Notes: a model not told the origin generated them from the sequence alone. A DNA stretch of 64,000 nt from an uncultured Acidobacteriota bacterium (GCA_963782815.1 CAWALG010000030.1:41187-105186); one strand, 5' to 3'; shown: positions 6,831-50,506, counted from the stretch's first letter. Translations and numbers: made by a program.

Positions 6831-6867
6831 CCGACGCGCCTCACTCCTTCCGATCGGCCCCCAAGAG

Positions 6868-30565: not shown

Positions 30566-30595
30566 GGCCACTCCTCTTCTCCTGTCGGAACGGTT

Positions 30596-31914
30596 TCATC
30601 CGAGTGACGTGAGATACCGAAGCGCCTTCAAGCCGGGAAGAAAGAAGTAGGCGCCTCCTCTCACGGTCGTGAAGGCCGGAAGACCGGTGATGGTCTTCCG
30701 GATCGGGCGCTTCGGGATCTTGAATTCGAGCGTTCCATCTTGGTTGCCGATGATGGGATCCCGCTCGTTGACGAGCTCGTGGAAGGCCTTGTCGTTGGCC
30801 CACACGTTCTGCGCGAACTCGAACTGGCGGACGAGGCTCGCGCAGATCACGAATGCCGCGATGCCGCGCTCCTTGCCGTCCTCGGGCGCGTCCTCGGGCA
30901 GGGGCGGGCCGTAGGTGGCGCCGCGCCGGATCATGCGGCGGCGGTTCATGTTCGCGCCGGTGTCCCGAGGGTTCATCCGCCGCATGTGGGAGCCGAGCGG
31001 CACGGCGTAGCCGTGCGGGTCCTGCTGCTTGTAGTTGAAGTCATTGTTCCGCTGCGGGTCGGCGCCCAGCGCCGGGTCGTCCTTGTCCGGCGCCAGGACC
31101 AGCGGCGCGCCGCTGCGCCAGCCGGCCCATGAGCTTCGCGGCGACGAGCTCCTGCTCCTCGGGCGTCTGGCCGTGCGTCTTCAGGAAGTCGCGGAACGCG
31201 CCCACGTGCTCCTCCAACCGCCGATACGCCATGAAGCTGCCGTTTCGCGAGAGAAGCTCGGGCTGCGGCTGAAGCAGAGGCGGACCGTTTTCGTCCGGAT
31301 AGCCGAGGATGAACTCGCCCGGCTTCAGCGGCGCGCCGGAGCCGGGCGTGGGCTCCTCGCCCGAGCCTTCGATGACCGGCTGCGACAGCCGGTCGCGGTA
31401 ACCAAAGTGGTCGTGCGCATAATCGAACGGCGGGGTCGCCTCCAGATCGAGCGTCGACAGCACACTCACGCCGTCGCATCGGGCGATGAGCTTCTCGTGC
31501 TCGGCCCGGCTGCGCTCGCGGTCGGCGGCGTCGCGCGCGAAAAGGATCACGATGGCGTGCAGGTCGGGGCTGGCCAGGCCTCCGACCCAGTTGTCGGGAT
31601 GGTTCGCGCCGGTATCGCCGAGGATCTGCGCGCGCGCCACCATGCCTTGCCGGAACTCATCGGGGAACGTCGCCAGGGACGCCTCGTCCACTCCGAGCGC
31701 GCGCAGGCCGTTGCAGGTGAAGGCCACCGTCACCCAGCGACGCTCCGTCTCGACCGATGCGCTGCATGGCGGCGGCGGACTGCACCTTGTCCAGAATCGC
31801 GGCAAGCCACGCGCGTCCGCCTGCCGGGTTCCGGAACGACAGGAACTCGTACCGGCCCGTGAGCGCGGGCGCGCGCGTCAGCAGGATGTGCTGGATGTCG
31901 TCGAAGGCGAGCAC
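30596..31914 (-). CDS. DyP-type peroxidase (locus A; apparent frameshifts near 31750 and 31125)
   Basis: GTG at 31914 gives MLAFDDIQHILLTRAPALTGRYEFLSF. The middle part contains HFGYRDRLSQP (GxxDG-region variant). After ...AAKLMGRW the reading SGAPLVLAPDKDDP...GYAVPLGSHMRRMNPRD holds the proximal His. The sequence also has FEFAQNVW and ends ...FFLPGLKALRYLTSLG*. Confidence 0.85.
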
Positions 31915-32490
31915 CGCTCGCTCACTGCATCTGGTCGAGCATGGTCGAGAACGACGGCCTTCAGCTGCAGCGCCTTCTTGATCTCGTCGGCGCTGACGAA
32001 TGGATACTCGCCGTACTCCAGGAAGCTCGGGCACTGGTGATCGCGGACAAACTTGATGAAGGCCGGCGGGTTCGTCTTCCAGTCCTTGGGGAAGCCCTCG
32101 AGGTTTTCAAAAACGGTGTTGATGCCGAGCTTCGTGAAGAGCGCCACCGCATCCTCGGTGTACTTGTCGAAGTCGGTGTCGAAGATTCCCTGGTACATGA
32201 AATAAGTTTCGCCCTTGATCGGGAACAGCACCCAGCGCAGGTAGTGCAGCTTGAGCACGGCGAGGCAGTCCGGCTGGCCGGCGACCGCCTTTTCGATGTT
32301 CTTGCGCGTATTCGTGGAAGACCGGTTCCCGTCCCGGGATGATCTTCGCGATGATCGTGAAGCCATAGCACGCGGGCGTTTTGGGAAAGATCGGCCCGTA
32401 TCGCCCGTCTTCTTTCTTGAAGAAGCCCTCCTTCGGGATTGCCATCGCGGCTGGCCTGGTCCAATCATTCTGGTTGGGGATGTTTGCCAT
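31878..32490 (-). CDS. uncharacterised DyP-associated protein, single H-Y-L-R-W-V domain (apparent frameshift near 32305; 3' end uncertain, 31878-31927)
   Basis: ATG at 32490 follows aaggagga, giving MANIPNQNDWTRPAAMAIPKEGFFKKEDGRYGPIFPKTPACYGFTIIAKIIPGREPVFHEY. After the frame change it reads RKNIEKAVAGQPDCLAVLKLHYLRWVLFPIKGETYFMYQGIFDTDFDKYTEDAV...FVRDHQCPSFLEYGEYPFVSADEIKKA. Homologous to both halves of 49202..50506. Confidence 0.7.
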
Positions 32491-32593
32491 GTTCCTCCTT
32501 AAATGGGTACGGTCGTGAAGGTTGAACTTTTTAACCGTTGAGCGGCCTGCCGTCAAGCGAAACGTTCGATCGGGCCGGAACATTCGAATCCTC

Positions 32594-32752
32594 AGAATCC
32601 GATCGCGCCCGAGAACTGAAGCGAGAAACCCTGGAATGTCGAGCGAATGCCGAATTCCTCGAAGAACCCCACGCTCGAGTTCAGGTTCGGTTCGCGGAAA
32701 CTCGTGTTCAAACCGAATCCGACGGCGCTAACCGCGTAGCGCTCGAGTGACT
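32594..32752 (-). pseudogene. C-terminal fragment of a second MetA-like OMP gene
   Basis: The minus-strand reading ...SLERYAVSAVGFGLNTSFREPNLNSSVGFFEEFGIRSTFQGFSLQFSGAIGF* parallels the end of 27774..28712 (ARYQINAFGLAANVGL...FSNKSTFQGYSVQVSGSVNF*). No N-terminal part is present, and homology stops next to the X module. Confidence 0.7.
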
Positions 32753-32765
32753 GAGCCGGAGGTTT

Positions 32766-32896
32766 CCATCCGTCACACTTCCGTCACACCGCTGGCCCGA
32801 GAGGCTTGACGAGAGTGAGACAACGCCGTGCTGACAACGGTTTTCGGATCTCGCCGTTCTAAGAGGTTGGTGGTTCGATTCCACCCCCCACAGCCA
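32766..32896 (+). repeat. X module copy 2 (32766-32863) plus 33-nt copy of tRNA-Asn 3' end (32864-32896)
   Basis: aggttggtggttcgattccaccccccacagcca is identical to the variable loop, T arm and acceptor 3' strand with CCA of the tRNA at 23621-23653. Confidence 0.9.
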
Positions 32897-33096
32897 CACG
32901 TCGCTAAGCGCTCTGCGAGGCATATGCGCCTTGTGGCGCACCGGCGAGCGACTCGGCCGGATGCGGCCTCGATCGCTCGCCTGATCCCTCGCTCCGCTCT
33001 TCGCTCCCGCGGCGCGAGGCTCCTCCCTTCGGTTACTCGGGAGACTCCTCGCGCCGCGAGCAACGGCGGCATCCCGGTGGTCTATTGGATGTGTCC
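32897..33096 (+). repeat. R module copy 2
   Basis: cacgtcgctaagcgc...gcgcc-ttgt-ggcgc...ggcgagcga...ggccg-gatg-cggcc...tcgctcgcc (32943-32981)...gggagactcctcgcgccgcgag...ccggtggtctattggatgtgtcc. It has the same order and orientation as copy 1. Confidence 0.85.
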
Positions 33097-33358
33097 CTAA
33101 GGACGTGTCGAGGGTACGCCTACCCTGTCATCCTGAGCGAAGCGAAGGATCTGCCCTCGCGGTCTGGCTCCGTCTCCTCGAAGTCAACCGGAGCAGGCGC
33201 CGGGGACGAGCGAGGAGGTTCGGTAGGAAGTCGCCCAGCACCGGTAGGATCGATCGCAGTAATACACCGATACACGATTGACCCCATTGCGATTCGCACG
33301 CTTGCCGCATAGGTAACCGGGGGAAGCCGGCGGAGCCTGGGTAGGGCAACCAGCGCCC

Positions 33359-33364
33359 TATAAT
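33359..33364 (+). promoter_or_regulatory. candidate -10 box (perfect TATAAT) 10 nt upstream of the kinase GTG start, implying a near-leaderless mRNA
   Basis: The sequence ccctataatcccggccgacGTG is an isolated AT hexamer in GC-rich DNA. No convincing -35 was seen. Confidence 0.3.
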
Positions 33365-33374
33365 CCCGGCCGAC

Positions 33375-35963
33375 GTGTCCCTGACGGCCGGTTCTTGGCT
33401 CGGGCCCTACGAGATCCTGTCGCCGCTCGGGGCCGGCGGGATGGGCGAGGTCTGGCGGGCCCGCGACACGCGGCTTTCCGCGAGGTGGCGGTCAAGGTCC
33501 TGCCGGCGGCGCTTTCGTCGGACGCGGAGCGGCTCCGGCGGTTCGAGAAGGAAGCGCGCGCGGCGTCCTCTCTGAACCATCCGGCGATCGTCACGATTTA
33601 CGAGATCGGAAAGGCGGAAGGGGTCTCCTACCTGGCCATGGAGCTCGTCGACGGGACGACGCTTCGCGAGGCGCTCGCCGCGGGGCCGCTCCCGGTCCGC
33701 CGGCTCCTTTCGATTTCCGCGCAGATCGCCGAGGGACTGGCCAAGGCGCACGGGGCCGGGATCGTGCACCGCGACCTGAAGCCCGAGAACGTGATGGTGA
33801 CGAAGGATGGCTTCGTCAAGATCCTCGACTTCGGCCTGGCCAAGGTCGTTGCCCCGGAGCCGGAGGCCGGGCAAGCGACCAGGGCGGCGACGGTTTCCGC
33901 GGGCACCGAACCGGGCGTCGTGATGGGGACGGTCGGCTACATGTCGCCGGAGCAGGCGCGCGGCGATCCCTGGACTTTCGCTCCGACCAGTTCGCGCTCG
34001 GCTCGATGCTCTACGAGATGGCGGTGGGCAGGCGCGCTTTTGCGGGCGGGACGAGGCCGGAGGTCATGGCGGCGATCATCCGCGAGGAGCCGGAGCCCAT
34101 CGCGACCGCGAATCCGAAGGTTCCGGCGCCGCTCCGATGGGTCATCGAGCGCTGCCTCGCCAAGGACCGGAGCGAACGCTACGCCTCCACCGAGGACCTC
34201 GCCCGCGACCTGCGGGGCGCCGAGGCGCATCTGTCGGAGCTCTCGGGAGGGGCCGCGGGAATGGGCGCTTCCGAAGCGACACGCCTGGCGCCGCGGAGGA
34301 AGCGGTCTGCTCGGAGGTCGCGGCTGGCGTTCTCGCGGGCCTCGTGTTCGGCGCAATGGGATTCTGGCTGGCCGCCGGCCGATCTCCGCATCCCTCCCAC
34401 GTTCCCTCCTTCCAGCGCGTGACGTTTCAGCGGGGAAACGTGCTCAATGCCCGGTTTGCCCCCGACGGACAGACGATTCTCTACAGCGCCTCCTGGGAAG
34501 GCCGCCCGGCGGAGGTCTTCTCGACGCGGGTCGACGGCACGGAGTCCCGGCCGCTCGGGCTCGCGAAGGCCGATCTGGCGGCTGTGTCAGAAGCGGCGAG
34601 CTGCTCATCCTTCTCAAGAGCTCCGACTTGCAGACACCCGGAGGCGTTTCCACGCTGGCGAGGGTCTCCCTTTCCGGAGGCGCTCCGCGCGAGATCGCGC
34701 AGAGCGTGCACATGGCCGAGTGGCTGCGTGGAGGCGGGATCGTCGTGCAACGGCATGTCGGCTTGGACCATGACGTGCTGGAGCTGCCGCTCGGGACGCG
34801 CCGCCTCGAATACAACGGGTCCGCTCCGAGGGTTTCGCGAGACGGCCGTTTCATTGCGATCGCCCGAGGAACGGTTCAAGGCGGCGAGGGCTCGATGTTC
34901 TCGATGAGGCAGGCAAGGTGGTCTGGAGCATAAAGGCGGACGTGGGCCTCGCAGCTCGCCTGGCATCCGAACGGCGAGCTGTGGTTCTCGCGGGATGCCG
35001 GCCAGGAACCTGGCCTTTTCGCCGTCGCGCGCGGAGGCCCATTCGCTCGATCTTCAGGGCGAACGGCTGGGTCCTGCACGACATAGCGCCCGACGGGCGG
35101 CTGCTCATGGAACGCGCAATCAGCAGGAACAGCATCCGGGTCCGAGTCAATGAGCCGAGGGAGCGCGAGCTCTCATGGCTCGACGGCTCGGAGCTCGTTG
35201 GGATGTCGAGCGACCTGAAGGCGCTGCTCTTTTCCGAGACGAACGAAGCCGGGAGCCGCGCCGGAGGCGTCTATCGCAGAGGGACGGACGGCTCCCCGGC
35301 GGTTCGGCTCTCGGACGGGAGAGCCCTCGCGTTTTCGGAGGACGGCCGCTGGGCGCTTGTCCGCGAATCGGGACGCCGGCCCGGCACACTCTCGTGCCGA
35401 CCGGAGCGGGCGAGCCCGTGCCGCTCGACTTCGGCGGCGACCGCCTGCTGTCGGCCGTCTTCCTGCCGGGACCGGAGCCGCGGCTTCTGGCCACGGTGGG
35501 CGAGAGCCCCGACCGAGGCCATGTCGAGCTCGTGACGCCGGCCGGGCGCCGCCCGCTCCCGATCTCGCCGGGCTTTACCCCCGGCGACGTGGCGGTCTCG
35601 CCGGAAGGAAGCGCGATCGCGTACGGAGCGGCCTACGGAGCGGGAGCGCGCGAGGTGGCGCTGTGTCAACTCGAGAAGCCGTCCTGCCGCAAGCTTCCCC
35701 TGCCGGCGGAGGCGACACCAATCCAATGGAGCGCCGACGGGAAATATCTGTATCTGCGCGACTATGGCGAGATCCCGGCCCACGTCATCCGCTACGAAAT
35801 CGCCACCGGCGCCCAGACGAACTGGCTGACACTCGGGCCTGACGATCCCACCTCTATTATCGTCGTCGGCCGCATCCTGCTGTCTCGCGACGGCCGCAGC
35901 TACGCCTTCAATCCCCTCGGAGTCCAGGACTCGAGCCTCTTCGTCGTCGAAGGCTTGCATTGA
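33375..35963 (+). CDS. Ser/Thr protein kinase fused to beta-propeller (several apparent frameshifts)
   Basis: [34 protein letters not shown] is ORF 33375..33575. [16 protein letters not shown] and SPEQ are in ORF 33395..34933. [17 protein letters not shown]... is in 34006..34422. Propeller parts are in 34137..34907 and 34918..35535. The C-terminus ...[11 protein letters not shown] is in 35175..35963. Confidence 0.85.
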
Positions 35964-36015
35964 CTTGCAGGACGATGGCCGGGTACGAGACTCCTCGCGC
36001 CGCGACCTGGGCTTT

Positions 36016-36053
36016 CCCCTCTCCCTCCGGGAGAGGGCCAGGGTGAGGGCGCC
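36016..36053 (+). repeat. second copy of the ctctccc..gggagag + gggtgagggcgcc palindromic element (intergenic)
   Basis: cccctctccctccgggagagggccagggtgagggcgcc, compared with 22121-22164. Confidence 0.8.
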
Positions 36054-36063
36054 GGTAATGCCA

Positions 36064-36210
36064 CCGTCGCTCAGCGCTTGCGCGTGGTCTGCGCCCTGCG
36101 GGCGCACCGGCGGGCGGCTCGCGCGGATGCGCGCTCGACCTCTCGCCTGACACCGCGCAAGCACTCCGCTCCCGTGCCGATGGCATGCCGGTGGTCCATT
36201 GGATGTGTCG
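36064..36210 (+). repeat. R module copy 3
   Basis: ccgtcgctcagcgc...gcgccc-tgc-gggcgc...ggcgggcgg...gcgcg-gatg-cgcgc...cctctcgcc (36109-36147)...ccggtggtccattggatgtgtcg. The inner stem changed GGCCG/CGGCC to GCGCG/CGCGC while the loop gatg is kept. Confidence 0.85.
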
Positions 36211-36339
36211 TTGAAGACCCATAAATGGCAGAGTGATTGCACGCTCTGACGATCGGTCCGAAGGTCCCCAGATTTCCTCCGACCATCTCCGGCCCGTGGC
36301 GATCCGGAGTCCTCCGAACCACAAGTCATGGAGGAAGGT

Positions 36340-37326
36340 ATGTCGATCCGGCGCACAATCGAGGCTGCCCTTTCCGTTGCCATGCTTCTCGTTGCTCTCG
36401 TTCTGGTCAGTTGCAGAGATTCTGAGTCCGTATCCTCCCCGACATCTCCCGGGGGCGCGACCGTGACTGGAACCGTCGTCAGCGGAGAAACTTCCGGCGG
36501 GGTCTCTGCCGGTAGCGCTCTGGCGGGCGTCACCGTCTCGGTCGTCCGGACGGGCCAGGCCGCGCAGACCGACGGCGCTGGCAACTTCACTCTCGCCGGC
36601 ATCCCCGCAGGCGACCAGCAGTTTCAGTTCTCCCGGACCGACATCGACGCCCGCGGCAACATCCGGGCGATGGGCGGCGCGACCGTCGCGGTCGACGTCG
36701 CCATCTCCAGGAGATCCACGATCGTGATCACACCGCGCGGCGGTCCGTTCATCCCGGCGCTGCCCACGGGGACCACGACGGCGACCCCGACGGGGACTCC
36801 GACGGGGACCCCACCAACCCCGGGAAGCCCGACGGCGACGCCGACGGGAACCCCAACTCCGGGAACCCCGACCCCCGCGACACCCACCACAACGCCCCAC
36901 GGCCCAGCAGTCGAACAGATCGAGGGGATCGTCACCGCCAATACCGGCGCCACGCTGACGATCGCCGATCAGCGGCTGGGCTCGGTAGTCGTCACCGTCA
37001 CGCCGACGACGATCATCCGCCACGGCGGAACGCCGATCCCGATCTCGGAGGTCCTTGTTGGAATGCGCGTCCACGTCAAAGCGCTGCTCGAAACCACCGG
37101 CACGTACACGGCGCTCGAGATCATCGTCCAGAACGAACATGGGGAAACGGCGACCCCGACGGCGCCCGCGGCGACGGCAACGCCCACATTGACGCCGACG
37201 AGCACGCCAACGACGACGCCTACAGCCGTGGCCACGAATACTCCAACCGGGACGACGCCGACGGCCACGCCCACGGCCACAAATACGCCAACCGGGACGC
37301 CGCCCACGTCAACGCCGACGCCGTAA
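36340..37326 (+). CDS. lipoprotein with carboxypeptidase-regulatory-like domain, DUF5666-like domain and Pro/Thr-rich linkers
   Basis: ATG at 36340 follows ggaggaagg. The lipobox is LVALVLVSC. GATVTGTVVS...GVTVSVVRTGQAAQTDGAGNFTLAGIPAGDQQF is CarboxypepD_reg-like. IEGIVTANTGATLTIADQRLGSVVVTVTPTTIIRHGGTPI is DUF5666-like, by recollection. Long PT tracts are present. Confidence 0.75.
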   Translation: MSIRRTIEAALSVAMLLVALVLVSCRDSESVSSPTSPGGATVTGTVVSGETSGGVSAGSALAGVTVSVVRTGQAAQTDGAGNFTLAGIPAGDQQFQFSRTDIDARGNIRAMGGATVAVDVAISRRSTIVITPRGGPFIPALPTGTTTATPTGTPTGTPPTPGSPTATPTGTPTPGTPTPATPTTTPHGPAVEQIEGIVTANTGATLTIADQRLGSVVVTVTPTTIIRHGGTPIPISEVLVGMRVHVKALLETTGTYTALEIIVQNEHGETATPTAPAATATPTLTPTSTPTTTPTAVATNTPTGTTPTATPTATNTPTGTPPTSTPTP

Positions 37327-37400
37327 ACCGCTCCGCGCGCTCCGCGGGATCTACGCCTGCGGCGTGATCCCGCTGCGGCGCTCCGCTCCCGCGGCGGAGC
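37327..37400 (+). repeat. partial R-like module (copy 4) just after the lipoprotein stop
   Basis: cgctccgcgcgctccgcgggatctacgcc-tgc-ggcgtgatccc resembles the start of R copies (cgctccgcaagggatctgcgccc-tgc-gggcgc). The first-hairpin stem is ACGCC/GGCGT. The extended hairpin spans 37346-37371. Confidence 0.6.
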
Positions 37401-37464
37401 TTGGCACGAACGGGAGCGGGAAGGAACGAGCTCGAACTACCATACCGGGCGAGGGACCACGGAG

Positions 37465-38454
37465 ATGGCGAGGCCTGTTCGGGCGGGTACGACTCGGGCG
37501 CTCACGATGCCGCTCCTCTTGGGGGTCAGCCTGCTCGTCGCGGCGGGGTTTACGCTCGGCAAGGTCAGGGTGGATCAGCAGGGGCAGCTCGGTTCCGTTG
37601 GTGGGTACACCTGGAGTCTCAGTCTCTGGTTCCTGCCGATCGCGGTCCTGCTGGTCTGGTTCATCCGGCGGCGCGACCAGGTCATACAGCGCCCGGCATT
37701 CTGGACGACACTCATCGCCTTGATCGCGTCCGGGTTCGCGCTCGACTACTTCTTCGCGCATACCTTCTTCCTCTTCCCCAACGCCGCGGCGACGCTGCTC
37801 CCGCCCGCGCCGGCGCGGGGCGGCCCGGTCCCTTCGGAGGAGTACCTGTTCTATGTCGGCGGGTTTCTCTTCGTCCTCCTCTTTTACATCTGGTGTGACG
37901 AAGACTTTCTGCTTCTCTACAATGTGCCCGACTATCGGGAGGCCTGGGCGAAGACCGGTCGCTCGCGCGTTGCCCAGTTCGATCCGCTCTCGCTGACCGG
38001 GGCGGCCGTCCTGATCGCCGGGGCGTGGATCTACAAGGCCGAAATCGCCCGGGGCCCGTTCCGCGGCGGCTTCCCGGGGTATTTCGCATATCTGACGCTC
38101 CTGGGAGTCGCCCCCGCCGTCGGCTTTCTGAAGGCCACGAGACAGTTCATCAACTGGCGGGCCTTCGCCCTCACGTTCCAGGTCGTGGTGGCGGTTTCCC
38201 TGCTCTGGGAGGCGACGCTGGCAGCGCCCCTGGGCTGGTGGCGCTATCAGCCCGGGGAGATGACCGGCATCGTGGTCGCAGCCTGGTACGACCTTCCGCT
38301 CGAAGCCGTCATCATCTGGCTCGCCGTGACGTTCACGACCGTGATCGTCTACGAAACCGTCAAAGTCTGGCAGGCCAGCGGAGGCAGGATGCCCGCGTTC
38401 ATCCCGCGCAGAGTCAGAGCTTCAGTTCGGAAGTGGTATCACCTGCCCGACTAA
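37465..38454 (+). CDS. lycopene-cyclase-domain membrane protein (fused two-domain type)
   Basis: Intact polytopic ORF with two PxEE/PLE-type motifs characteristic of CrtYc/Yd-like domains (VPSEEYLFYVGG and DLPLEAVIIWLA). The start could also be the Met of MPLLLGV (37507). Confidence 0.6.
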   Translation: MARPVRAGTTRALTMPLLLGVSLLVAAGFTLGKVRVDQQGQLGSVGGYTWSLSLWFLPIAVLLVWFIRRRDQVIQRPAFWTTLIALIASGFALDYFFAHTFFLFPNAAATLLPPAPARGGPVPSEEYLFYVGGFLFVLLFYIWCDEDFLLLYNVPDYREAWAKTGRSRVAQFDPLSLTGAAVLIAGAWIYKAEIARGPFRGGFPGYFAYLTLLGVAPAVGFLKATRQFINWRAFALTFQVVVAVSLLWEATLAAPLGWWRYQPGEMTGIVVAAWYDLPLEAVIIWLAVTFTTVIVYETVKVWQASGGRMPAFIPRRVRASVRKWYHLPD

Positions 38455-39395
38455 TCACGCCGCGGGCTTCTCAGCTCGCCAGAACTTCAACATTACAAAG
38501 TCTACGTCTTTGCCGAAGATCGGGAAATCGTAGGCGAACAGCAACTCCATCTGATAATCCGTCCCTTCGAGCCGCTCAGGATGGTGCTCATACAAGATCC
38601 GCGGCTGTGGCCCCTCGCCGTTGACTTCAAATGTCAGCTCAGCATGATTCTGCTCCTTACCAGCCGTTGTATGTACCAACCTGATCTTGACTCTCGGTCC
38701 TTCCGGCGGCAACTGTCCGGAGAATGGGATGTCCCGGCGGAGCATCACAAACGTGACCGTTGGTAGCGTTTCGAGGTCACGCAGGGCGGCCTGTGCCTTA
38801 TCGTTTGTGTCCTTGGTCTGCTGGATCGCCACGCCTGCAGCCGACGTCGCCTCTTTTGCAGCCGATGTCGTTTTCTGAAGCAGCGTCTTGAATTCATCTA
38901 GGTGTTTGATCTCAGCTGCTATCTGGTCCTGAGCCCGCTGACGTTCAGCGGCCAGAAAGGTCTGCAACCCGGAGTTCTGCATGGTCTGCGTTGTTGTCAA
39001 GAGGTCCGAGAAGTGTGTGGCGGTTTCCTTAACAAAAACCGACCTCTTCTCTAGCTCATCAGCAGCGTCGTGCTCAGCCTTCTGTAGTCTGGTGATGTGT
39101 GCGTCGAGACGATGAATATCATCCTGGCGCTGACTGAGCTCTCGATTGAGGTCGGTAATCTGAGCCGTCAGCTTGTCTTTCACATTTATCCCGAGAATAC
39201 CAAGTATCGAGGCGGCGCCGGTCAAGATGAGCAGCGCCGTGTCCGCCAACGCGAAAAGACGTCTCGGACAGTCTCTTCCGCCCTGACCTCAATCAGGGTC
39301 TTCATGGTTGGGGAGTCCACCAGCCCAACCAGCTTCTCCCGCAGGATCGGATCTAGTTCTTCGCTGAGCCCACCGCTGATGCCCTCACCGTTCAT
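38455..39395 (-). CDS. hypothetical membrane-anchored coiled-coil protein (possible frameshift near 39255 joining a 57-aa leader ORF to ORF 38455..39249)
   Basis: ATG at 39395 follows aaggagga, giving MNGEGISGGLSEELDPILREKLVGLVDSPTMKTLIEVRAEETVRDVFSR. This runs into LADTALLILTGAASILGILGI (TM) in the adjacent frame. About 150 aa of heptad-like sequence and a beta-rich C-terminus (...MELLFAYDFPIFGKDVDFVMLKFWRAEKPAA) follow. The TTG start at 39249 has no RBS. Confidence 0.55.
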
Positions 39396-39529
39396 CTGTC
39401 AATTCCTCCTTGTAACTGAATCTGGCGAGTCAGCTAGGGCAGTTGTCTCGGAAGCGCGGGAAAAGGTCGTCAGGAAAGCCGTGACCTGGCATCAGCAACC
39501 GCCGATGTCGGTAGCGCGGCGCACCACGC

Positions 39530-40171: not shown

Positions 40172-40366
40172 ACTTCTTGCGACTCTCCTTCATATGGATC
40201 GCTTCTCATCAGGCGTTAGGCTAGGAAAGACTTGGGTCTTGTTTGACGTCCGTAACATATTGCAGAGAAGCGACTTCAGTCGGCTAGGATTTCTACGCTT
40301 GCCGCGCGGCTTCGTTGGGGCCGTCGGCCAGGACGCTGCAAACTCGGGCGAAAGGGCTCCGGCGCG

Positions 40367-42622: not shown

Positions 42623-42700
42623 CGCGGGCCGGCAACGATCGAGGTCCGAGAACACGCATGCGTGCATTCTCGCGCAAACGGTCCGAGGGAGTGGCTGTTG

Positions 42701-43511
42701 CTAGGCCGACACGTGGGGGACCCGGGGGACGACAAACGCCGGATCCACCTGCCAGAGCTCCTCCGATCGGACAAGCCGCGCGAGGGTCAACGCGGAGGAG
42801 GAGACGCTCGGGGCGATCCCGATGACGCAGGCCTCCTCGACGGCCGGGATTCCCGGGGTGAGACCTTCCGTCGGCGCGGGAGAGGGGCATACGCGTTCCC
42901 AGTAGCGCAGCGTCACGTAGGCGCTGTCCCCCGACTTCGGGCGCTCGCAGCGTGGCGCCTCGCGAGAGGCTGATCTCCTCGCCGCGGGCGTCGACCGCGT
43001 AGCCGGGGTCGATGACGATGCGGACGGCGTCGGGATCGGTCGCGGATTCGACGCGGACTCCGAGCCCGGAGACGACGCCGTATCCGAGGAGCGCGCGGTT
43101 GTGAAGACGGCGTTTCTCGCGCTGATAGTCCTGCTCGGCCGCGAGAGCCTCGGCATCGAGCAGCTGCCCGGCGAAGAAGAGGGGGCGCTTCACGACCTCG
43201 CATCCGGCGTCGGGAACGCCGCCGATTGCCGCCAGAGCCGCGGCCGCCCGCAATGCGGCGTTGCGCCCCTCCGGGATCTGGTTGGCGCGGAAGAGGAGGC
43301 TCTCCGCGAGGAACGCGAAAATCTCGAGCAGCGTCACGCCCGGATCCGATTCGTTGTCATCGGTCCACTCCGGAACATGGGCTCGCAGGGTCCGCCGGAA
43401 CTCGGCGGCGAGAGATTCCAGCGCCGCGTCGTCCGTCGAGATTCCAGGAATGGGCTGAACGCCCGTGTCGATCTCTTCCACGTAGACGCCCGGGTACAGG
43501 TATTCCGGCAT
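42701..43511 (-). CDS. orphan phage-tail-like mosaic protein: sheath-type N-terminal motif plus baseplate-J-like N-domain (apparent frameshift near 42945)
   Basis: MPEYLYPGVYVEEIDTGVQPIPGIST is the canonical tail-sheath N-terminus. WTDDNESDPGVTLLEIFAFLAESLLFRANQIPE is a baseplate J/gp47-type motif. ...FFAGQLLDAEALAAEQDYQREKRRLHNRALLGYGVVSGLGV follows. The tail ...KSGDSAYVTLRYWERVCPSP...LTLARLV...* is in ORF 42701..43156. Confidence 0.6.
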
Positions 43512-43627
43512 CGTAGTTCTCCTCGGCGAGCTCCGCGGCGAGGCGAGGCCCGAAATGATAGCCGAGAAAACGGACGAGAAGGCCGATGGCAGAGATCTTG
43601 CTCTTTCTCGACGGTGGAGGCCTGCCC

Positions 43628-44566
43628 ATGCAAATTCTCGTGACGGGCGCGACCGGTGTCGTCGGCCGCCGGGTCGTACCGCTTCTGATCGGCGCCGGGC
43701 ATCGCGTGACGGCGATCGGCCGGTCGGTCGAGAAACTGGCGGTCGTCGCGCGGCAGGGGGCCTCGACCTCGCGTGGCGATCTCTTCGACCCGAATGCGCT
43801 GCGCGCCGCTGCCGCCGGGTGCGATGCGGTCGTCAATCTCGCGACGCACATGCCGCAGTCCATGTTGCGGGTGATGATGCCGGGGGCGTGGACGGAGAAC
43901 GATCGGATCCGGAGGGTCGGGTCGGCCAACCTCGTGGACGCCGCGATTGCCGCGGGCGTTTCGCGGTTTGTGCAGGAGTCCTTCGCTCCCGCGTACCCGG
44001 ACCGCGGCGATCAGTGGATCGGAGAGGAGACGCCGCTGCGCCCGACCAGATACAACAGGACGATCCTCGACGCGGAGGCTTCGGCGGCCCGATTCGCAGC
44101 GAGCGGCGGGGCCGGCGTCGTGCTCCGTTTCGGGGCGTTCTATGGGCCGGATTCCCGATTCCTGCTGGAGATGATTCCCCTGGTGCGCCGCGGATGGGCG
44201 CCGTTGCCCGGAGCTCCCGAGAGCTTCGTTTCGCCGCTCTCGCACGACGACGCGGCGGCGGCGGTGGTCGCCGCGCTGCAGCTTGACGCCGGGATCTACA
44301 ACGTGACCGACGACGAGCCCGTGCCGCGGCGCGAGTATTTCGACACGCTGGCGGCGGCTCTCGGAGCGCCGGCGCCGAGGTTCCCGCCCGGTTGGGCCGT
44401 CAAGCTGATGGGCTCTACCGGCGAGCTCCTGTCGCGCTCGCAGCGCATCTCCAACCGGAAGCTCCGGAGCCGATCCTCGTGGACCCCGAAGTACCCGAGC
44501 GTGCGCGAGGGGTGGCACGCGGTCGTCCCCGGCATCGAGAAGAGCGCCCGCTCCGCCGCCGCCTGA
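43628..44566 (+). CDS. NAD-dependent epimerase/dehydratase family (atypical SDR)
   Basis: The in-frame ATG at 43628 gives MQILVTGATGVVGRRVV (Rossmann TGxxGxxG). The ORF is intact to 44566. Confidence 0.8.
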   Translation: MQILVTGATGVVGRRVVPLLIGAGHRVTAIGRSVEKLAVVARQGASTSRGDLFDPNALRAAAAGCDAVVNLATHMPQSMLRVMMPGAWTENDRIRRVGSANLVDAAIAAGVSRFVQESFAPAYPDRGDQWIGEETPLRPTRYNRTILDAEASAARFAASGGAGVVLRFGAFYGPDSRFLLEMIPLVRRGWAPLPGAPESFVSPLSHDDAAAAVVAALQLDAGIYNVTDDEPVPRREYFDTLAAALGAPAPRFPPGWAVKLMGSTGELLSRSQRISNRKLRSRSSWTPKYPSVREGWHAVVPGIEKSARSAAA

Positions 44567-44658
44567 CGTTTCCCGCCTCGATCTCTCCTGGAACTAGAAT
44601 AGGCAATCCGGGGTCGCTCGATCGCCCGCCTGCTTCGCGCGCGGAGAAGGAGTGCAAC

Positions 44659-46907
44659 ATGGTCAGAGCCCGGTTCGGATTGCTCCCCGGCGTCCTTTCT
44701 CTCCTCTTCCTCTCCTCGTCCCGGCCGTCCTCTCGTGCAGGAAAGAGGAGAAGCCGGCGAGTCCGCCGCCGGCCCAGAAGGTCGCGCTGCACGACGAGAA
44801 GATGAAAGAGACGAAGGTGGACGTCTTCCCCGGGATGGACGGCCCCGATCTCGGGCTGACGGAAGACGACATCCGCGGGCGCGTGGTGTGGAACCTCTGG
44901 GTCGGCGACAGCGGCGAGATGTGGGACTTTCTCGCTCAGCACGGCTTCGGCACCGCGGATCTGATCAAGACGATCGACTCGCGCCGCCGCGCCCATCGCT
45001 TCGCGGAGATCGGCATCGTCAACCAGCCGGGATTCCAGGCGGCCGCCAGGCCCGACCCCTACGGCCTGTTCCTCGACGAGCCGAAGCCCGGCGACCCCGA
45101 CGGGCAGATCGATCAGAAGATCGACGAGTACACCTACGGCCGCTCCTCCGGCGTGGTCGGCCTGCGCATCTCCAACAACAAGAGGTTCGACTCCGCCGCG
45201 AAGGCCGAATGGATGAAACACGTCGCGGCCGACGGCGTCAACCACGACTATTACGAGAACCCGGACTACTTCAACGATCCGAAGCTCGTCCGCCCCTACG
45301 TCGTCGGCATGGCCTGCGCGTTCTGCCACGTGGGTCCCGACCCGGTCCGGCCGCCGGCCGACCCGGAGAATCCGAAGTGGGAGAACCTGAACGACTACGT
45401 CGGCGCGCAGTACTTCAAGGTCTGGGAGGTCTTCGTCCCGCGCCTCCCCGGCGGCGCGCAGCAGGAAGACAGCTTCGTCTGGCAGCTCATCCACTCGAAC
45501 CCGCAGGGGACGCTCGACACGTCCTTCATCGCCACCGACTACCTGAACAATCCCGGCACGATGAACGGCGTGTACAGCCTGAAGGCGCGCCTCTCGCGGG
45601 CGCAGAGCGAGCACATCACCGGCGGGGCTCTCAACCTGCACGGCGTGACGGATCCCATGGACGTCCCGCGCGTGCTCAAGCAGGGCGACGACTCGGTCGG
45701 GTTCACGGCGGCCTTGAGCCGCGTCTACGTCAACATCGGCGAGGCCTGGCCGGAATGGCAGAAGCATTTCCGGCCGCTCATCGGCGGACCGGACAGCAAG
45801 GGACGTCAGAGCCCCGTCCCCGTCGACACGATGCAGCGGACTTCCGCGTACTGGAACTGGAGCGAGGAGCGCTCGCCTTACCTCGCGGGGTATCTGATCA
45901 AGGTCGCCAGGCCGCTGCTGCTCAAGGACGCGCCGGGCGGAGCGCAGTACCTGACGAAGGACCCGCAGGTGCTCGAGCGCGGGAAGGCCGTCTTCGCCGA
46001 GAACTGCGCGGGCTGCCACTCGAGCAAGCAGCCCCCGGAGGGCACCGACCAGCAGAAGGCGGTGGAGTGGTTCCGCCAGCAGGTGGCGAGCGACCCGAGC
46101 TTCTTCACCGACAACTTCCTCGCCGACGAGCGCCGCCACAAGGTGACCGACATCGGCACCAATGCCACTCGCGCGGCGGGCACCAACGCCACGCGCGGCC
46201 ACATCTGGGACAACTTCTCGTCGGAGACGTACAAGACTCTGCTTCCGGTGGGAACGTTCCAGGTCGAAAACCCGTGGGAGAACAACGCCAGGTCGATCCC
46301 GGTCACCATCCCGCTCGCCGGAGAGGAGCAGGGTCCGGGGTACTACCGTCCGCCCTCCCTGATCAGCCTCTGGTCGAGCGCGCCGTTCCTTCACAACAAC
46401 AGCGTCGGCGAGGACTTCGGCGATCCGTCCGTCGCCGGCCGCATGCGCGCGTTCCAGGACGGGATCGAAAGGATGTTGTTGGTCAAGCCGCGGGCCAACA
46501 AGGTCTGGCGGACCACCAGGACGAGCTACATCAACATTCCAATGGCCTACGTCCCGGATCTGCTGCAGAAGATGATCGTCGATCCGCATCTCCTCGACGG
46601 CAAGGGCAACCTCCGGATCGGGCCCATCCCGGCGGGCACGCCGATCAACCTGCTGGCGAACACGAATCTCGACGCTCCTCTCGCCGATTTCACGGAGCTG
46701 ATGCTGCACCTCGTCCCCGCCCTCGTCGACATCCGCATGAAGAACATGAACGATCAACAGGCGAAGGAACGCTTCCAGCGGGTCGTGCCGTACCTGATCA
46801 AAGTGAACAAGTGTCCGGACTTCATCGAGGACAAGGGTCACCTCTTCGGCACGAACCTGCCCCTGGCCGACAGGAAGGCGCTGATCGAGCTTCTGAAGAC
46901 GTTCTGA
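44659..46907 (+). CDS. di-haem c-type cytochrome lipoprotein (peroxidase/oxidase-like), apparent frameshift near 44705
   Basis: ATG at 44659 follows ggagaaggag, giving MVRARFGLLPGVLSLLFL, joined to ..LLVPAVLSC (lipobox). There are two CxxCH sites (MACAFCHVG, NCAGCHSS). RPPSLISLWSSAPFLHNNSVG resembles the distal-haem region of di-haem peroxidase-like enzymes. Confidence 0.75.
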
Positions 46908-46922
46908 GGCGAGGAGGGGCCG

Positions 46923-48803
46923 ATCGAAACGCCGGGCGAGAGCTACGAGTACATCGTCGTCGGGTCGGGAGCCGGAGGAGGACCCCTTGCGGCCAACCTC
47001 GCGCGGGCCGGACGGAGCGTGCTGCTCCTCGAGGCGGGGAGCGATCCGGAGACCTATCTCTATCAGGTTCCGTGTTTTCACCCCTCCTCGACGGAGGAGA
47101 AGGCGATGGCGTGGAACTACTTCGTTCACCACTACAGCAAGGACGAAGAGCGGGACGAGAAATACCGGGCAGCCCAGGGAGGAGTCCTGTACCCGCGCGC
47201 CGGCACCCTGGGCGGCTGCACCGCGCACAACGCGATGATCACCGTGGTCCCGCACGACAGCGACTGGGACTCGATCGCCGGATTGACCGGCGACCGCTCG
47301 TGGCGCGCGGCGAACATGCGCCGGTATTTTCAGCGCGTGGAGCGGTGCGCGTACGCGTCGCCGCCGGAGGCTGGCCACGGCTCCTCGGGATGGCTCACCG
47401 TCAGCAAGGTCGATCCCTCGATGGCCATCGGCGACATGCAGGTCGCGCACACGGTCATCGACGCGGCGCTGCAATCCGCGCGGGGCGGCTTCTTCGGCTT
47501 CCTGAAGAGGGTCTTCCGGTTCCTCGAGACGGGCGACGACCCCAACGACGCGCGCAACGGAGCCGCCAACGAGGGGGTCGTCACCACCATCCCGCTTGCG
47601 ACATCGGGCGGACGGCGCAACGGCACGCGCGAGTTCATCCGCCGCGTGCAGAAGGAGTGTCCCGGCCGGCTGACGGTTCGGATGAACAGCCTCGCCACGC
47701 GCGTGATCCTGGACGACGAGCAGCGCGCCGCCGGCGTCGAGTGCCTCGAAGGACGGCACCTCTACCGCGCCGACCCGGATTGGTCCGCCGCGGCTGCCGG
47801 CGCGACGAGGCGGTATTCCTGCAGCCGGGAGGTCATCCTCGCCGGCGGCGCGTTCAACACTCCGCAGCTCCTGATGCTCTCCGGCATCGGCCCGAGGGGG
47901 CATCTGGCCGAGAAGGGCATTGCGTGCCGCGTCGACCGCCCCGGCGTCGGCCGCAACCTGCAGGACCGCTACGAGGTTGCCGTCGTCTCCACGATGAAGC
48001 GGGACTTCGAGATGCTCTCGGGCGCGACGTTCCAGCCGCCGGCGGAAGGGGAGGAAGGCGACCCCTGTTTCCGCGAGTGGCTGGATGGAGAGGGCATCTA
48101 CACCTCCAACGGCGCCATCGCCGCGGTGATCAGGAAATCCGACCGGAGGAAGCGCGATCCCGACCTTTTTCTCTTCGGCGTGCCGGGGAAGTTCACCGGC
48201 TACTACCCCGGATACTCCGCCGATCTCGAGCGATCGAAGAACTGCCTCACCTGGGCGATCATCAAGGGGCACACCAACAACACCGGCGGCACGGTCCGGC
48301 TCCGGTCGAACGACCCGCGCGACACGCCCGAAGTTCATTTTCACTACTTCGAGGAAGGGACCGATCCGGGCGGCGAGGACCTCCGGTCCGTGGTGAAGGC
48401 GATCGAATTCGTGCGGGCCATGAACGATCGCAACGAGACCATCCGGGAGGAGAAGGTGCCGGGCAGGCACCGGCAGGGCAAAGAGCTCGAGAAGTGGATT
48501 GCCGACAACGCCTGGGGACATCATGCGTCGTGCAGCTGCCGTATCGGGCGGCCCGACGACCCGATGGCGGTCGTCGACAGCCGCTTTCGCGTGATCGGCG
48601 CGAGGGGTTTGCGGGTGGTGGACGCGTCGGTCTTCCCGAGAATTCCGGGGTTCTTCATCGTCAGCGCGATTTACATGGTCAGCGAGAAGGCGGCCGACGT
48701 CATCCTGGCCGACGCCGCCGGGGAAACGGAAGAAGAGAGAGGAGGAAGGAACCATGGCTTACGAAGTGGCGCAGCTTCTGAAAATGTCTCAAGCCCAGCT
48801 TGA
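46923..48803 (+). CDS. GMC-family FAD oxidoreductase (start codon unresolved)
   Basis: [23 protein letters not shown] (GxGxxG) starts at 46944. The C-terminal GMC signature is ...[42 protein letters not shown]. The frame is continuous with the upstream TGA (46905-46907) and has no ATG/GTG/TTG/CTG before the Rossmann motif. ATC at 46923 lies 3-6 nt after gaggagggg. Confidence 0.8.
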
Positions 48804-49185
48804 CGAGCTCTTTACCGGGAGCCCGGCCGGCGAGATACCGGACGGGGAGGCGCGGGGAACGGCCATCGTCGCCCCGGGCACCACCTACACCGCCGAGATC
48901 GCGCAGTTCATCAATCACTTCGCCTGGCAAGGCAAGACCTTCGATGCGAAGCACGGCTCCCTGCGAAACCGGATCCTCCCCTTCGGCTTGAACGCGATCA
49001 TCGCCAGGGTCTACAAGGGGGAGAGCTGGCTCGATCACAAGGAGTGCATCGTCCTCGATTATTCCGAGACCTCGGTCGTCGCGCAGTGGATCCGCGACGA
49101 AATCCGGCAGATCGGCCCGCGCATCTACCTGGGGAAGGTCTACTGGAACAAGAGCCGCCTGATCGACTTCGCGATCGAGTTCTGA
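48754..49185 (+). CDS. hypothetical protein (143 aa)
   Basis: Intact ORF. ATG follows aggaggaagg. HFAWQGKTF...IVLDYSETSVVAQWIRDEIRQIGPRIYLGKVYW is faintly reminiscent of GXWXG/DUF4334-type proteins, with low certainty. Confidence 0.6.
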   Translation: MAYEVAQLLKMSQAQLDELFTGSPAGEIPDGEARGTAIVAPGTTYTAEIAQFINHFAWQGKTFDAKHGSLRNRILPFGLNAIIARVYKGESWLDHKECIVLDYSETSVVAQWIRDEIRQIGPRIYLGKVYWNKSRLIDFAIEF

Positions 49186-49201
49186 GCGGCCGCGGCCGGC
49201 C

Positions 49202-50506
49202 ATGACGCCTCAGTCGAGCTTCACGATCGTTTCGCCGATCCTCCCGGACCGGGTGGACGGCCTGCGCGGGCTCCTCGCGTCCATGAACCACCGCCCGGGA
49301 GTGGCCAATCCGCAAAACGATCTCGTCCCCTTCGGCCGTCTCGACCGGCTCCATTTCGCCCGGCTCGTGATCCTCGACGACAAGACCCGGAGCGACATCG
49401 AGGTCTATGGTCTGCCGCCGGCGGACTTCGGTCTTTCCCTCGCATTTCTCGCGGACTTCGACGGGCCGGCCGGCGAGTTCCTCGCGGACATGGTCCGGCT
49501 CTCCGGCGACGGCCTGCGCCGCATCTTCGCGCATTGCGAGGGCTTCCATCCGGACACCGACCTGCTGCGCTGGATGCGGGACCGCGACCACTCGCCGGCC
49601 GGCGCTTATGTGAACTGGCTGGGGCGCACGGCGCGGCAGATCCGCGAGGAGGCCGCGCTGCGGGATGCCCTCGTGACGCGCCTGCGCGAGGAGGCCTCCG
49701 CGGCCGCGGGCGGCGACCCTCAGCGGGTGCGGGACGATCTGGTGCGGTTCGCGCGTGAGGAGGTGGAGGCGGGCAGGCTCACCCTGACGGCTCCGGAGCC
49801 CACGCCGCTCCCCTGGCGTCTGCGCAACCTGTCTCACGCCATCGGAGTGCCCTTCCTGCTGCTGCTCCTGACGCCATTCCTGCTGCTGTACCTCCCGCTG
49901 TTCCTCTACCAGCTCCGCCGCCGGGAGACGCGGGACCCCGAGATCGTTCCGGCGCCGGATTCCGGTCTCGCCTCGAGGCTGGCGGACCTCGAAGATCACG
50001 GCGTGACGAACCAGTTCAGCGCGCTCGGGACCTTGAAGCCCGGTCTCTTCCGCCGCTCGACCGTGGTTTTCTTCCTCTGGGTCCTGGACTACGCGGCCCG
50101 GCACATCTACAACCGCGGCCACTTGACGCGGGTCAGCACGATCCATTTCGCGCGCTGGGTCTTTCTGGACGGCAAGAAGCGCCTTCTCTTCGCGAGCAAC
50201 TACGACGGAAGCCTGGAGAGTTACATGGACGACTTCATCAACAAGGTCGGCTGGGGCTTGAACCTGGTGTTCAGCAACGGCGTGGGGTACCCGCGGACGG
50301 ACTGGCTCGTCCTGGCGGGCGCGAAGGACGAGCAGAAGTTCAAGCGATTCATCCGGCGGCACGAGCTGCCGACGGAGGTCTGGTACAACCCTCATCCCGG
50401 GCTGACGGCGATCGACCTGGATCGAAATACCCGCATCCGGCGGGGACTCGAGCAGCCGGCGCCGGCGCAAGCGGAGATCCGCGAGTGGCTGGGGCTGCTG
50501 TGCTAG
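49202..50506 (+). CDS. uncharacterised DyP-associated membrane protein with two H-F-A-R-[LW]-V domains
   Basis: Intact 434-aa ORF. Domain 1 is FTIVSPILPDRV...LDRLHFARLVILDD...LAFLADFDGPAGEFLADM. A central hydrophobic segment is VPFLLLLLTPFLLLYLPLFLY. Domain 2 is VSTIHFARWVFLDGKKRLLFASNYDGSLESYMDDFINKVG...FIRRHELPTEVWYNPHPGLTAIDL. It sits 13 nt upstream of DyP. Confidence 0.75.
   Translation: MTPQSSFTIVSPILPDRVDGLRGLLASMNHRPGVANPQNDLVPFGRLDRLHFARLVILDDKTRSDIEVYGLPPADFGLSLAFLADFDGPAGEFLADMVRLSGDGLRRIFAHCEGFHPDTDLLRWMRDRDHSPAGAYVNWLGRTARQIREEAALRDALVTRLREEASAAAGGDPQRVRDDLVRFAREEVEAGRLTLTAPEPTPLPWRLRNLSHAIGVPFLLLLLTPFLLLYLPLFLYQLRRRETRDPEIVPAPDSGLASRLADLEDHGVTNQFSALGTLKPGLFRRSTVVFFLWVLDYAARHIYNRGHLTRVSTIHFARWVFLDGKKRLLFASNYDGSLESYMDDFINKVGWGLNLVFSNGVGYPRTDWLVLAGAKDEQKFKRFIRRHELPTEVWYNPHPGLTAIDLDRNTRIRRGLEQPAPAQAEIREWLGLLC

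Follow-up and report, generated by a model that had tools for sequence, protein, structure and literature searches.

Two loci in a 64,000-nucleotide stretch of DNA from an uncultured Acidobacteriota bacterium (GCA_963782815.1 CAWALG010000030.1:41187-105186; hereafter the window, meaning the whole stretch analysed) each encode a DyP-type peroxidase that is immediately preceded by a gene whose product carries a domain with the motif H-[FY]-x-R-W. We found that this domain, referred to below as the partner, represents a new protein family, with a predicted fold of a known class, that is attached to a known enzyme class, the class V DyPs, and we regard a functional partnership of some kind between the two as highly probable. 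Our preferred reading, to which we assign a probability of about 0.5, is that the domain is an unnamed branch of the alpha+beta-barrel proteins that serves as a dedicated partner subunit of class V DyPs, carrying a ligand pocket and forming a complex with the peroxidase, and that the form found at the second locus is tethered to the membrane.

The physiological role of DyPs is a long-standing open question, and this is equally true of the natural role of the class V enzymes. Nearly all work on DyPs has used the isolated recombinant enzyme with artificial dyes or lignin models as substrates, and in vitro the performance of several class C enzymes is poor. Should there be a conserved partner, half of the system may have been missing from those experiments. 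The partner described here is often fused to DyP, occurs in hundreds of species and is also encoded beside a DyP that has been crystallised, and with it the physiological role of class V DyPs becomes experimentally approachable.

Genomic pairing and family of the partner domain

The sequence-only reading of the window, an earlier account made without database searches, had proposed a functional partnership, for instance as a DyP accessory, a chaperone, or a substrate-delivery or second catalytic subunit, from the presence of the domain next to both DyPs. Tested in other genomes, the pairing was found again and is more general than could be seen from the two loci of the window. Among the fetched loci of the A type (named after locus A of the window) with room downstream, a DyP gene follows directly on the same strand in 75 of 78, the three exceptions having recombinase-like open reading frames (ORFs) downstream instead, and for the B type (named after locus B) a DyP gene adjoins the partner in all 61 metagenome loci with room. 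We also took a DyP-centred sample, consisting of 17 class V DyPs on plasmids with 27-81% identity to the peroxidase of locus A (DyP A), in which the domain was immediately upstream or fused in 13 cases. This near-invariant adjacency, together with the natural fusion proteins described below, supports the proposed partnership. The A type was present in at least 582 species-representative genomes, distributed over Alpha- and Gammaproteobacteria, Acidobacteriota, Planctomycetota, Verrucomicrobiota, Cyanobacteria, Myxococcota, Gemmatimonadota, Eremiobacterota and Actinomycetota.

The two genes are closely spaced, with the partner stop lying between -19 and about +20 nucleotides from the DyP start across loci. 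In the window, each partner gene was said to end within a few nucleotides of its DyP, and the gaps are indeed 7 nucleotides at locus A (partner stop at 31922, GTG start of DyP A at 31914) and 13 nucleotides at locus B (partner stop at 50506, start of DyP B at 50520). Elsewhere, gaps of 3 nucleotides were seen in Sphingobium and Brucella and of 1 nucleotide in Deinococcus radiodurans, while the genes overlap in Granulicella and Skermanella. The accessions of two such pairs, with the partner named first, are WP_159402632 and WP_159402631 in Nostoc and WP_051618841 and WP_027479749 in D. radiodurans. The two pairs of the window are deeply diverged, at about 33% identity between the DyPs and about 22% between the partners, and since both have kept a partner together with a DyP, the pairing appears to be ancient.

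Four formats of the partner were observed, namely a single-domain gene (locus A and the DR_A0144 type of D. radiodurans), two paralogous single-domain genes, a gene encoding two domains and a hydrophobic segment (locus B), and fusions to DyP, some of which also include a cytochrome P450. Bradyrhizobium has two paralogous single-domain genes, and Granulicella has a split pair whose members match the C-like and N-like halves of the B type. Fusions of a two-domain partner with DyP were found in proteins of 891 residues (P0331) and 924 residues (P0339), and in P0381, which has the same arrangement and is ended by a contig edge. A layout with an N-terminal cytochrome P450 domain, the partner domain or domains and a C-terminal DyP is present in Novosphingobium aromaticivorans DSM 12444 on pNL2 (L178, 531-4862, 1443 residues) and in Pararhizobium qamdonense (L182, 609-4880, 1423 residues). 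In Skermanella, a separate P450 gene was seen after the DyP gene. Among the B-type proteins, one variant (P0374) contains several inserted hydrophobic helices.

At the sequence level, partner A matches the C-terminal half of partner B with a BLASTP E value of 3e-12 and the N-terminal half with 3e-5, and the A-family profile matches both halves of the B-family profile (hhalign probability 96%, E~1e-9). Judged by these comparisons, the three domain copies of the window that the sequence-only reading had aligned are alike far beyond chance, and its ordered list of motifs proved to be essentially the signature of the family across 346 domain instances. The His of H-[FY]-x-R-W is found in 346 of these 346 instances, covering all architectures, and nine further residues occupy fixed positions with 87-98% conservation; in P0210 numbering, the His is H85 and the others are R88, W89, D107, Y113, D116, N132, R152, H154 and Y162. 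In one Granulicella paralog, Glu replaces the His. The A-type proteins additionally have a strongly conserved N-terminal tail (DWTKPAAMAIPK...GRYGPIFPKTPACYGF), which is modelled with low confidence.

Homology searches returned more than 6,400 proteins of the B type, more than 7,700 of the A type and more than 2,700 of the DR_A0144 type, and an exhaustive profile search at E<=1e-3 gave 3,064 clusters at 50% identity. All of these homologs are named 'hypothetical' or 'Uncharacterized protein' at their source, and none has a precomputed Pfam domain; RefSeq likewise uses the label 'hypothetical' in Nostoc, Streptomyces, Deinococcus, Bradyrhizobium, Granulicella, Sphingobium, Rhodococcus, Brucella, Acinetobacter and Gloeothece. 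Scans of both partners against Pfam-A (2025) and NCBIfam (2026) produced no hit even at E<=1, and a PDB sequence search with partner B retrieved chance GAPDH hits only. A PDB profile search with the A family returned designed tandem-repeat proteins only, aligned at the C-terminal helix, which we judged to be spurious. The domain had been called uncharacterised at the outset, and no characterised family emerged from the Pfam, NCBIfam and PDB sequence or profile searches; nor did searches of the literature on DyP neighbourhoods, class C DyP clusters, P450-DyP fusions and DR_A0144 turn up a description of the partner. Within the libraries and literature searched, the family is thus undescribed, and a family of this size, with at least 3,000 clusters at 50% identity, deserves a name. 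A distant single-domain member of 240 residues (P0342) has an N-terminal twin-arginine-like signal (TTRRDMLVLASAGTAAVALGA), and some members of the family may be exported as folded, possibly cofactor-bearing proteins.

The two peroxidases and the predicted fold of the partner

The assignment of both peroxidases as DyPs, already made in the sequence-only reading, was borne out by their intact homologs. In searches of the PDB, the intact ortholog of DyP A matched DrDyP of D. radiodurans (8re2, E=1e-108), fungal D-type DyPs (1e-38), DyP2 (9e-24) and AnaPX (5e-21), and comparing the DyP A profile with that of DyP B gives E=5e-73. The Pfam domain DyP_N scores 31-35 bits in the A type (cutoff 27.5) and Dyp_perox_C scores 26 bits in the intact B ortholog (cutoff 20), with TIGR01413 at 89-96 bits, just below its cutoff of 100.5. 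These domains are consistent with DyP, and the comparisons place both proteins among the class V (C/D) enzymes, in a divergent clade. We checked the distal Asp of the GXXDG region, the distal Arg and the proximal His, using the DrDyP residues as named in PMC10820274, and both DyPs, as read from their sequences, carry this catalytic set. The corresponding motifs are GYRDR, PLGSHMRRMNPRD (the proximal-His motif) and RRMIRRGATYG in DyP A, and GFRDG, PVGAHIRRANPRN and HRVLRRGREYG in DyP B; the last residue of GYRDR is non-canonical, as in the GYKDM of DrDyP.

DrDyP (DR_A0145; PDB 8re2/8re3) is the closest solved relative of DyP A. It has been crystallised and described as 'unusual', with poor activity and a six-coordinate low-spin heme at neutral pH when alone (PMC10820274). 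The gene ending 1 nucleotide before that of DrDyP, DR_A0144, encodes a 243-residue hypothetical protein that scores 52-67 bits against our partner profiles, and downstream of DrDyP lies DR_A0146, a 'catalase family protein' that is homologous to a 398-residue protein of the window (BLASTP E=9e-41) and has been reported to lack catalase activity (PMC6300522). The literature that we found discusses DR_A0145 and DR_A0146, and DR_A0144 is not mentioned there. Compared with the loci of the window, the DR_A0144-DR_A0145-DR_A0146 locus has a partner from a third, more distant branch of the family, and the 338-residue, SBF, GMC and 143-residue genes described below are absent from it.

Two kinds of DyP partnership are known, the encapsulin-DyP cargo systems and EfeUOB/YcdNOB iron uptake, and the systems described here would be like them in having a DyP gene co-transcribed with a dedicated non-peroxidase partner that sets where or how the DyP works. 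They differ in both components: the DyPs of the known systems are class P (B-type) or class I (A-type, exported by the twin-arginine translocation (Tat) pathway), whereas those of the window are class V and signal-less, and in place of the H-[FY]-x-R-W partner the known systems have either an HK97-fold shell or the EfeU permease together with EfeO. Searched for a Tat signal, the DyPs scored 15-17 bits against TIGR01412, which has a cutoff of 428, and they begin directly at the conserved ...DIQG/DIQH motif. Encapsulin, EfeU and EfeO genes were found neither in the loci of the window nor in related loci.

AlphaFold2 predicted partner B to contain two beta-alpha-beta-beta-alpha-beta units, with helices and a long hydrophobic helix between them (predicted local distance difference test score (pLDDT) 80.8, predicted template-modelling score 0.82), and the A-type protein P0210 to contain one such unit (pLDDT 77.7). 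DSSP assigned E44-53, H58-74, E84-94, E97-106, H110-124 ... E161-163 in the A-type model, an arrangement that fits this topology with its four-stranded antiparallel sheet and is present twice in B. When both models were compared with the PDB using Foldseek, the meaningful hits were all dimeric alpha+beta-barrel proteins, including WhiE-ORFI/SchA-like proteins, Abx(+)O, TcmI, ABM monooxygenases, OAC, MhuD/IsdG, Dabb and mutarotases. A ferredoxin-like or dimeric alpha-beta-barrel fold had been guessed in the sequence-only reading; the models and Foldseek support this fold class, while no specific functional relative of the partner gained support.

The partner thus shares its predicted topology with the ABM/dimeric alpha+beta-barrel superfamily, occurring as a single domain or in tandem as in Abx(+)O and WhiE-ORFI, but neither sequence nor profile searches related it to a member of that superfamily in Pfam, NCBIfam or the PDB. 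It gave no Pfam or NCBIfam hit at E<=1 to the ABM family proper (PF03992), and its domain is larger (~130-190 residues, compared with ~100), with an extra helical region, a conserved N-terminal tail and motifs of its own. To our knowledge, none of the families in the superfamily is an obligate neighbour of DyP. DyPs themselves consist of two ferredoxin-like alpha+beta-barrel domains, and the two-domain B partner mimics this two-barrel layout of DyP, a member of the CDE superfamily (Cld, DyP, EfeB), but the partner has neither the GXXDG motif nor the proximal-His motif. The possibility that it is a diverged DyP half-domain was rejected, as hhalign comparison with the cognate DyP profiles gave a probability of 0.3-0.9%. 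DyP and Cld structures were absent from the top 50 Foldseek matches of the partner models.

A proposed mechanism and its alternatives

In the mechanism that we propose, partner and DyP would be made in a fixed ratio and would assemble into a stoichiometric cytoplasmic complex. Two partner domains would join to form a barrel, whether in a homodimer, between paralogs or within one chain, which would explain why single, duplicated, tandem and fused formats all exist. Each domain is predicted to hold a conserved polar pocket around the invariant His, lined by Arg/Trp, Asp, Tyr, Asp, Asn and Arg-x-His, and this pocket may bind a small ligand, most likely one that DyP consumes or forms. A second site would then take part in the physiological reaction, which would be coupled to the catalase-family protein, the P450 or the GMC oxidoreductase of the cluster. 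In the B type, the proline-rich hydrophobic segment would hold the complex at the cytoplasmic membrane, on its inner face. This segment comprises 26 residues between the two domains, among them an invariant Tyr and three prolines that hardly vary, and is flanked on either side by basic residues; the flanking charges, the prolines and the compactness of the model suggest a monotopic or re-entrant anchor, with both domains and the signal-less DyP in the cytoplasm.

For the pocket itself, we prefer a role as a site for substrate or product, linking DyP to the other enzymes of its cluster that handle peroxide, and put this at somewhat below even odds. A bolder version, which we hold only tentatively and think rather doubtful, is that class V DyPs are obligate hetero-oligomers in vivo, in which the partner either provides the true substrate site or switches the heme out of its inactive six-coordinate state, and that they function in the metabolism of organic, possibly lipid-derived, hydroperoxides and not in dye or lignin oxidation. 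Such a metabolism is suggested by the company that the pair keeps, which includes a catalase-related protein without catalase activity, a P450, a GMC oxidoreductase, a 3-hydroxyacyl-CoA dehydrogenase, a thioesterase, a patatin-like lipase and a membrane anchor. Were the hetero-oligomer reading true, it would give class V DyPs a physiological function and would explain why DrDyP-like enzymes look 'unusual' when alone.

Several observations count against a dedicated partner subunit of this kind. Of the class V DyPs sampled, 4 of 17 had no detectable partner, so that a partner is not a strict requirement of the DyP fold, and direct translational coupling is not universal, as genes intervene between partner and DyP in Streptomyces (in the order partner, 337-residue protein, DyP) and in one further locus (L005), where a SnoaL-like gene separates the two. 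The Foldseek matches are weak, with best E values of 3.7e-3 for the B model and 2.5e-2 for the A model and target-normalised template-modelling scores of 0.45-0.6. A single bitopic helix in the B type would place its two domains on opposite sides of the membrane. Finally, three of the four core genes of the window (partner A, DyP A and DyP B) are frame-broken.

Instead of a subunit, the partner could be an independent pathway enzyme, such as a cofactor-free oxygenase, isomerase or cyclase of the ABM/TcmI type, which would act on a diffusible small molecule before or after DyP without forming a stable complex. Its structural neighbours are indeed mostly small-molecule enzymes (TcmI, Abx cyclases, ABM monooxygenases, OAC, mutarotases), the P450 multi-enzyme fusions resemble pathway fusions, and the transporter and outer-membrane channel of the A-type clusters suggest an imported substrate. 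However, the other pathway genes differ from one context (A, B or DR_A0144) to the next, whereas partner and DyP are much more rigid in their adjacency and order. With its split, duplicated and fused formats, the partner also behaves as a subunit would, and the conserved N-terminal tail of the A type looks like a binding segment. We consider an independent enzyme unlikely.

We kept a role in heme handling as the main alternative, at a low probability. According to this reading, the domain would bind heme through its invariant His, with Arg for the propionates, and would deliver, store or remove heme for DyP and the neighbouring hemoproteins. The heme degraders MhuD and IsdG, which have the ABM fold, are among the Foldseek matches of the A model, the His is accompanied by a conserved Arg, a Tyr and a second His, and nearly all recurrent neighbours are hemoproteins or candidates for them (DyP, the catalase-family protein, P450, a protein with a weak cytochrome c motif and An_peroxidase). 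The MhuD/IsdG matches are weak, however (E 0.04-0.26), being no better than those to cyclases and mutarotases, and they have no counterpart at the sequence level in the Pfam, NCBIfam and PDB profile searches. The catalytic triad of IsdG is Asn-Trp-His, which could not be placed on the partner; its alignment shows no conserved Asn on strand 1. A chaperone permanently fused to its client would also be unusual, and the Granulicella paralog with Glu in place of His does not fit a heme ligand.

Alternatively, the partner might be a non-catalytic regulator or scaffold without a ligand site of its own, which merely localises DyP, through the tether of the B type, or restrains a peroxidase that could be harmful in the cytoplasm. 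The hydrophobic anchor of the B type agrees with localisation, and the inactive low-spin state in which DrDyP is already found when alone makes activity control plausible, but the ten strongly conserved polar or aromatic positions, which are common to soluble and anchored forms, exceed what a tether needs, and the A and DR_A0144 types have no anchor; we think this improbable. Although the GC-rich window contains many long ORFs that are spurious, and the reading frame is broken at locus A, a chance or syntenic adjacency, or a domain similarity arising as an artefact of spurious ORFs, is refuted by thousands of homologs of conserved length, by a pairing that is kept across more than 10 phyla while the flanks change, and by the fusion proteins.

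The two loci of the window

Locus B lies on the plus strand and locus A on the minus strand, and the features of both are collected in the table below. At locus B, the 434-residue protein with two domains around a hydrophobic segment was found as an intact ORF, as the sequence-only reading had described it. At locus A, that reading had placed a single-domain protein of about 200 residues at 31878..32490; the domain and the start at 32490 were retained, but the protein is not a clean ORF, the quoted sequence having been spliced from three reading frames, and its true end is at 31922. Partner A is 86-91% identical to P0121/P0133 and others.

Features of loci A and B, with positions counted from the first nucleotide of the window
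Feature	Position	Strand	Evidence or remark
Partner B, intact 434-residue two-domain protein	49202..50506	+	100% identical to P0001
Partner B, N-terminal domain copy (~residues 1-138), LHFARLVIL motif	49202..49615	+	BLASTP, hhalign, AlphaFold2 secondary structure
Partner B, hydrophobic segment (~residues 213-238)	49838..49915	+	putative membrane anchor
Partner B, C-terminal domain copy (~residues 271-431), IHFARWVFL motif	50012..50494	+	BLASTP, hhalign, AlphaFold2 secondary structure
DyP B, class V DyP, canonical GFRDG motif	50520..52021	+	intact 497-500-residue orthologs in L001, L183
143-residue conserved ORF upstream of partner B	48754..49185	+	adjoins partner in 48/69 loci
GMC-family FAD oxidoreductase, recurrent B-type cluster member	47019..48803	+	Pfam, recurrence
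Homolog of the ~684-residue protein of the B-type cluster	44820..46676	+	recurrence in B-type loci
398-residue 'catalase family' protein, convergent with DyP B	52018..53214	-	homolog of D. radiodurans DR_A0146
Partner A, single-domain H-[FY]-x-R-W protein, ~189 residues after frame correction	31922..32490	-	ends ...SFSTMLDQMQ (stop)
DyP A, class V (C-type) DyP, GTG start at 31914	30596..31914	-	intact homolog L004:6617-7939
338-residue His-rich protein, third conserved gene of the A-type unit	29555..30571	-	recurrence across loci
SBF-family (bile acid:Na+ symporter-like) transporter, frequent in A-type clusters	28709..29521	-	
Phenol_MetA_deg-like outer-membrane channel, frequent in A-type clusters	27777..28628	-	

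The frame breaks of locus A were located by mapping the intact homologs of a relative (L004) onto the window by tblastn and DNA alignment. Compared with this relative, partner A has single extra bases at ~32304 and ~31957 and DyP A at ~31763 and ~31121. In DyP B there is a 2-nucleotide difference at ~50752, and the TAG expected as its stop (52019-52021) does not lie in frame (break at ~52016). Neither DyP is therefore an intact ORF in this window, with two breaks in DyP A and, in DyP B, one break together with a stop that is out of frame. Among the 11 genes checked, all frame-disrupting indels of 1-2 nucleotides lie in partner A, DyP A and DyP B, and the eight neighbouring genes each map in a single frame; were the breaks spread uniformly over the mapped length, the chance of their being confined to three of 11 genes would be ~0.0015. 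A sister contig that is 98% identical (L183) encodes an intact DyP B of 500 residues and has 1-nucleotide indels of its own in the GMC oxidoreductase gene. Because its indels fall in a different gene while its DyP B is intact, the breaks in the window are most likely assembly noise, despite their clustering, and the same observation weighs against ancient pseudogenes, to which the confinement of all breaks to three genes still leaves some probability; recent strain-specific decay is a less likely cause.

The sister contig also differs from the window between the convergent genes for DyP B and the 398-residue protein, where it has a spacer of ~229 nucleotides (6812-7055) that is missing at 52012-52021 of the window. 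The breakpoints of the spacer share CTAG, and in the window the ends of the two genes overlap and DyP B has no in-frame stop. The ends of the two genes overlap likewise in a more distant relative (L001).

Several neighbours recur with the pair, and they tie further 'dark' genes (those for the 338-, 143- and 398-residue proteins, the last of the catalase family) to peroxide chemistry. At A-type loci, the 338-residue protein is present beside partner and DyP in ~70 of 80 cases and contains the motifs APHHDVGF, YRHHGD and FNFHPHLPHY; it has no Pfam, NCBIfam or PDB match, is the gene product (337 residues there) encoded between partner and DyP in Streptomyces, and is likely to be a third component of the A-type system. 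At B-type loci, the 143-residue, 398-residue, GMC and 684-residue genes recur. Where the 143-residue ORF does not adjoin the B-type partner gene, it is mostly found elsewhere in the cluster, and in P0289 (579 residues) the 143-residue protein is joined to the N-terminus of a B-type partner. The 398-residue gene was found again in 34 of 41 B-type loci, and its homologs also adjoin partner-DyP pairs in Deinococcus, Sphingobium, Brucella, Rhodococcus and Acinetobacter. Pfam, PDB and NCBIfam searches with the 398-residue protein itself lent no support to a catalase-like identity, which is supported indirectly by DR_A0146, named 'catalase family protein' in RefSeq, with a sub-threshold hit to Pfam Catalase. 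The ~684-residue protein has no relative in the PDB, and the sole annotation of its copy in L001 (12392-14446) is a sub-threshold match to cytochrome c (Cytochrome_CBB3).

Other genes were seen in particular clusters. Those of the DR_A0144 type often add a TetR regulator, a 3-hydroxyacyl-CoA dehydrogenase and an acyl-CoA thioesterase (L168, L171 and L174, which are plasmid or chromosome II loci of Deinococcus, Sphingobium and Acinetobacter), and the B-type cluster of L001 includes an animal-type heme peroxidase (An_peroxidase). A lipid or organic-hydroperoxide theme among the cluster neighbours is possible but speculative. In B. cereus, a class V DyP without a detectable partner adjoins a patatin-like phospholipase. 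Just upstream of partner A in the window, at 32595-32759 on the minus strand, tblastn gave a further short match, with 45% identity over 55 residues, to the C-terminal region of the MetA-like outer-membrane channel, perhaps a fragment or the terminus of another porin gene.

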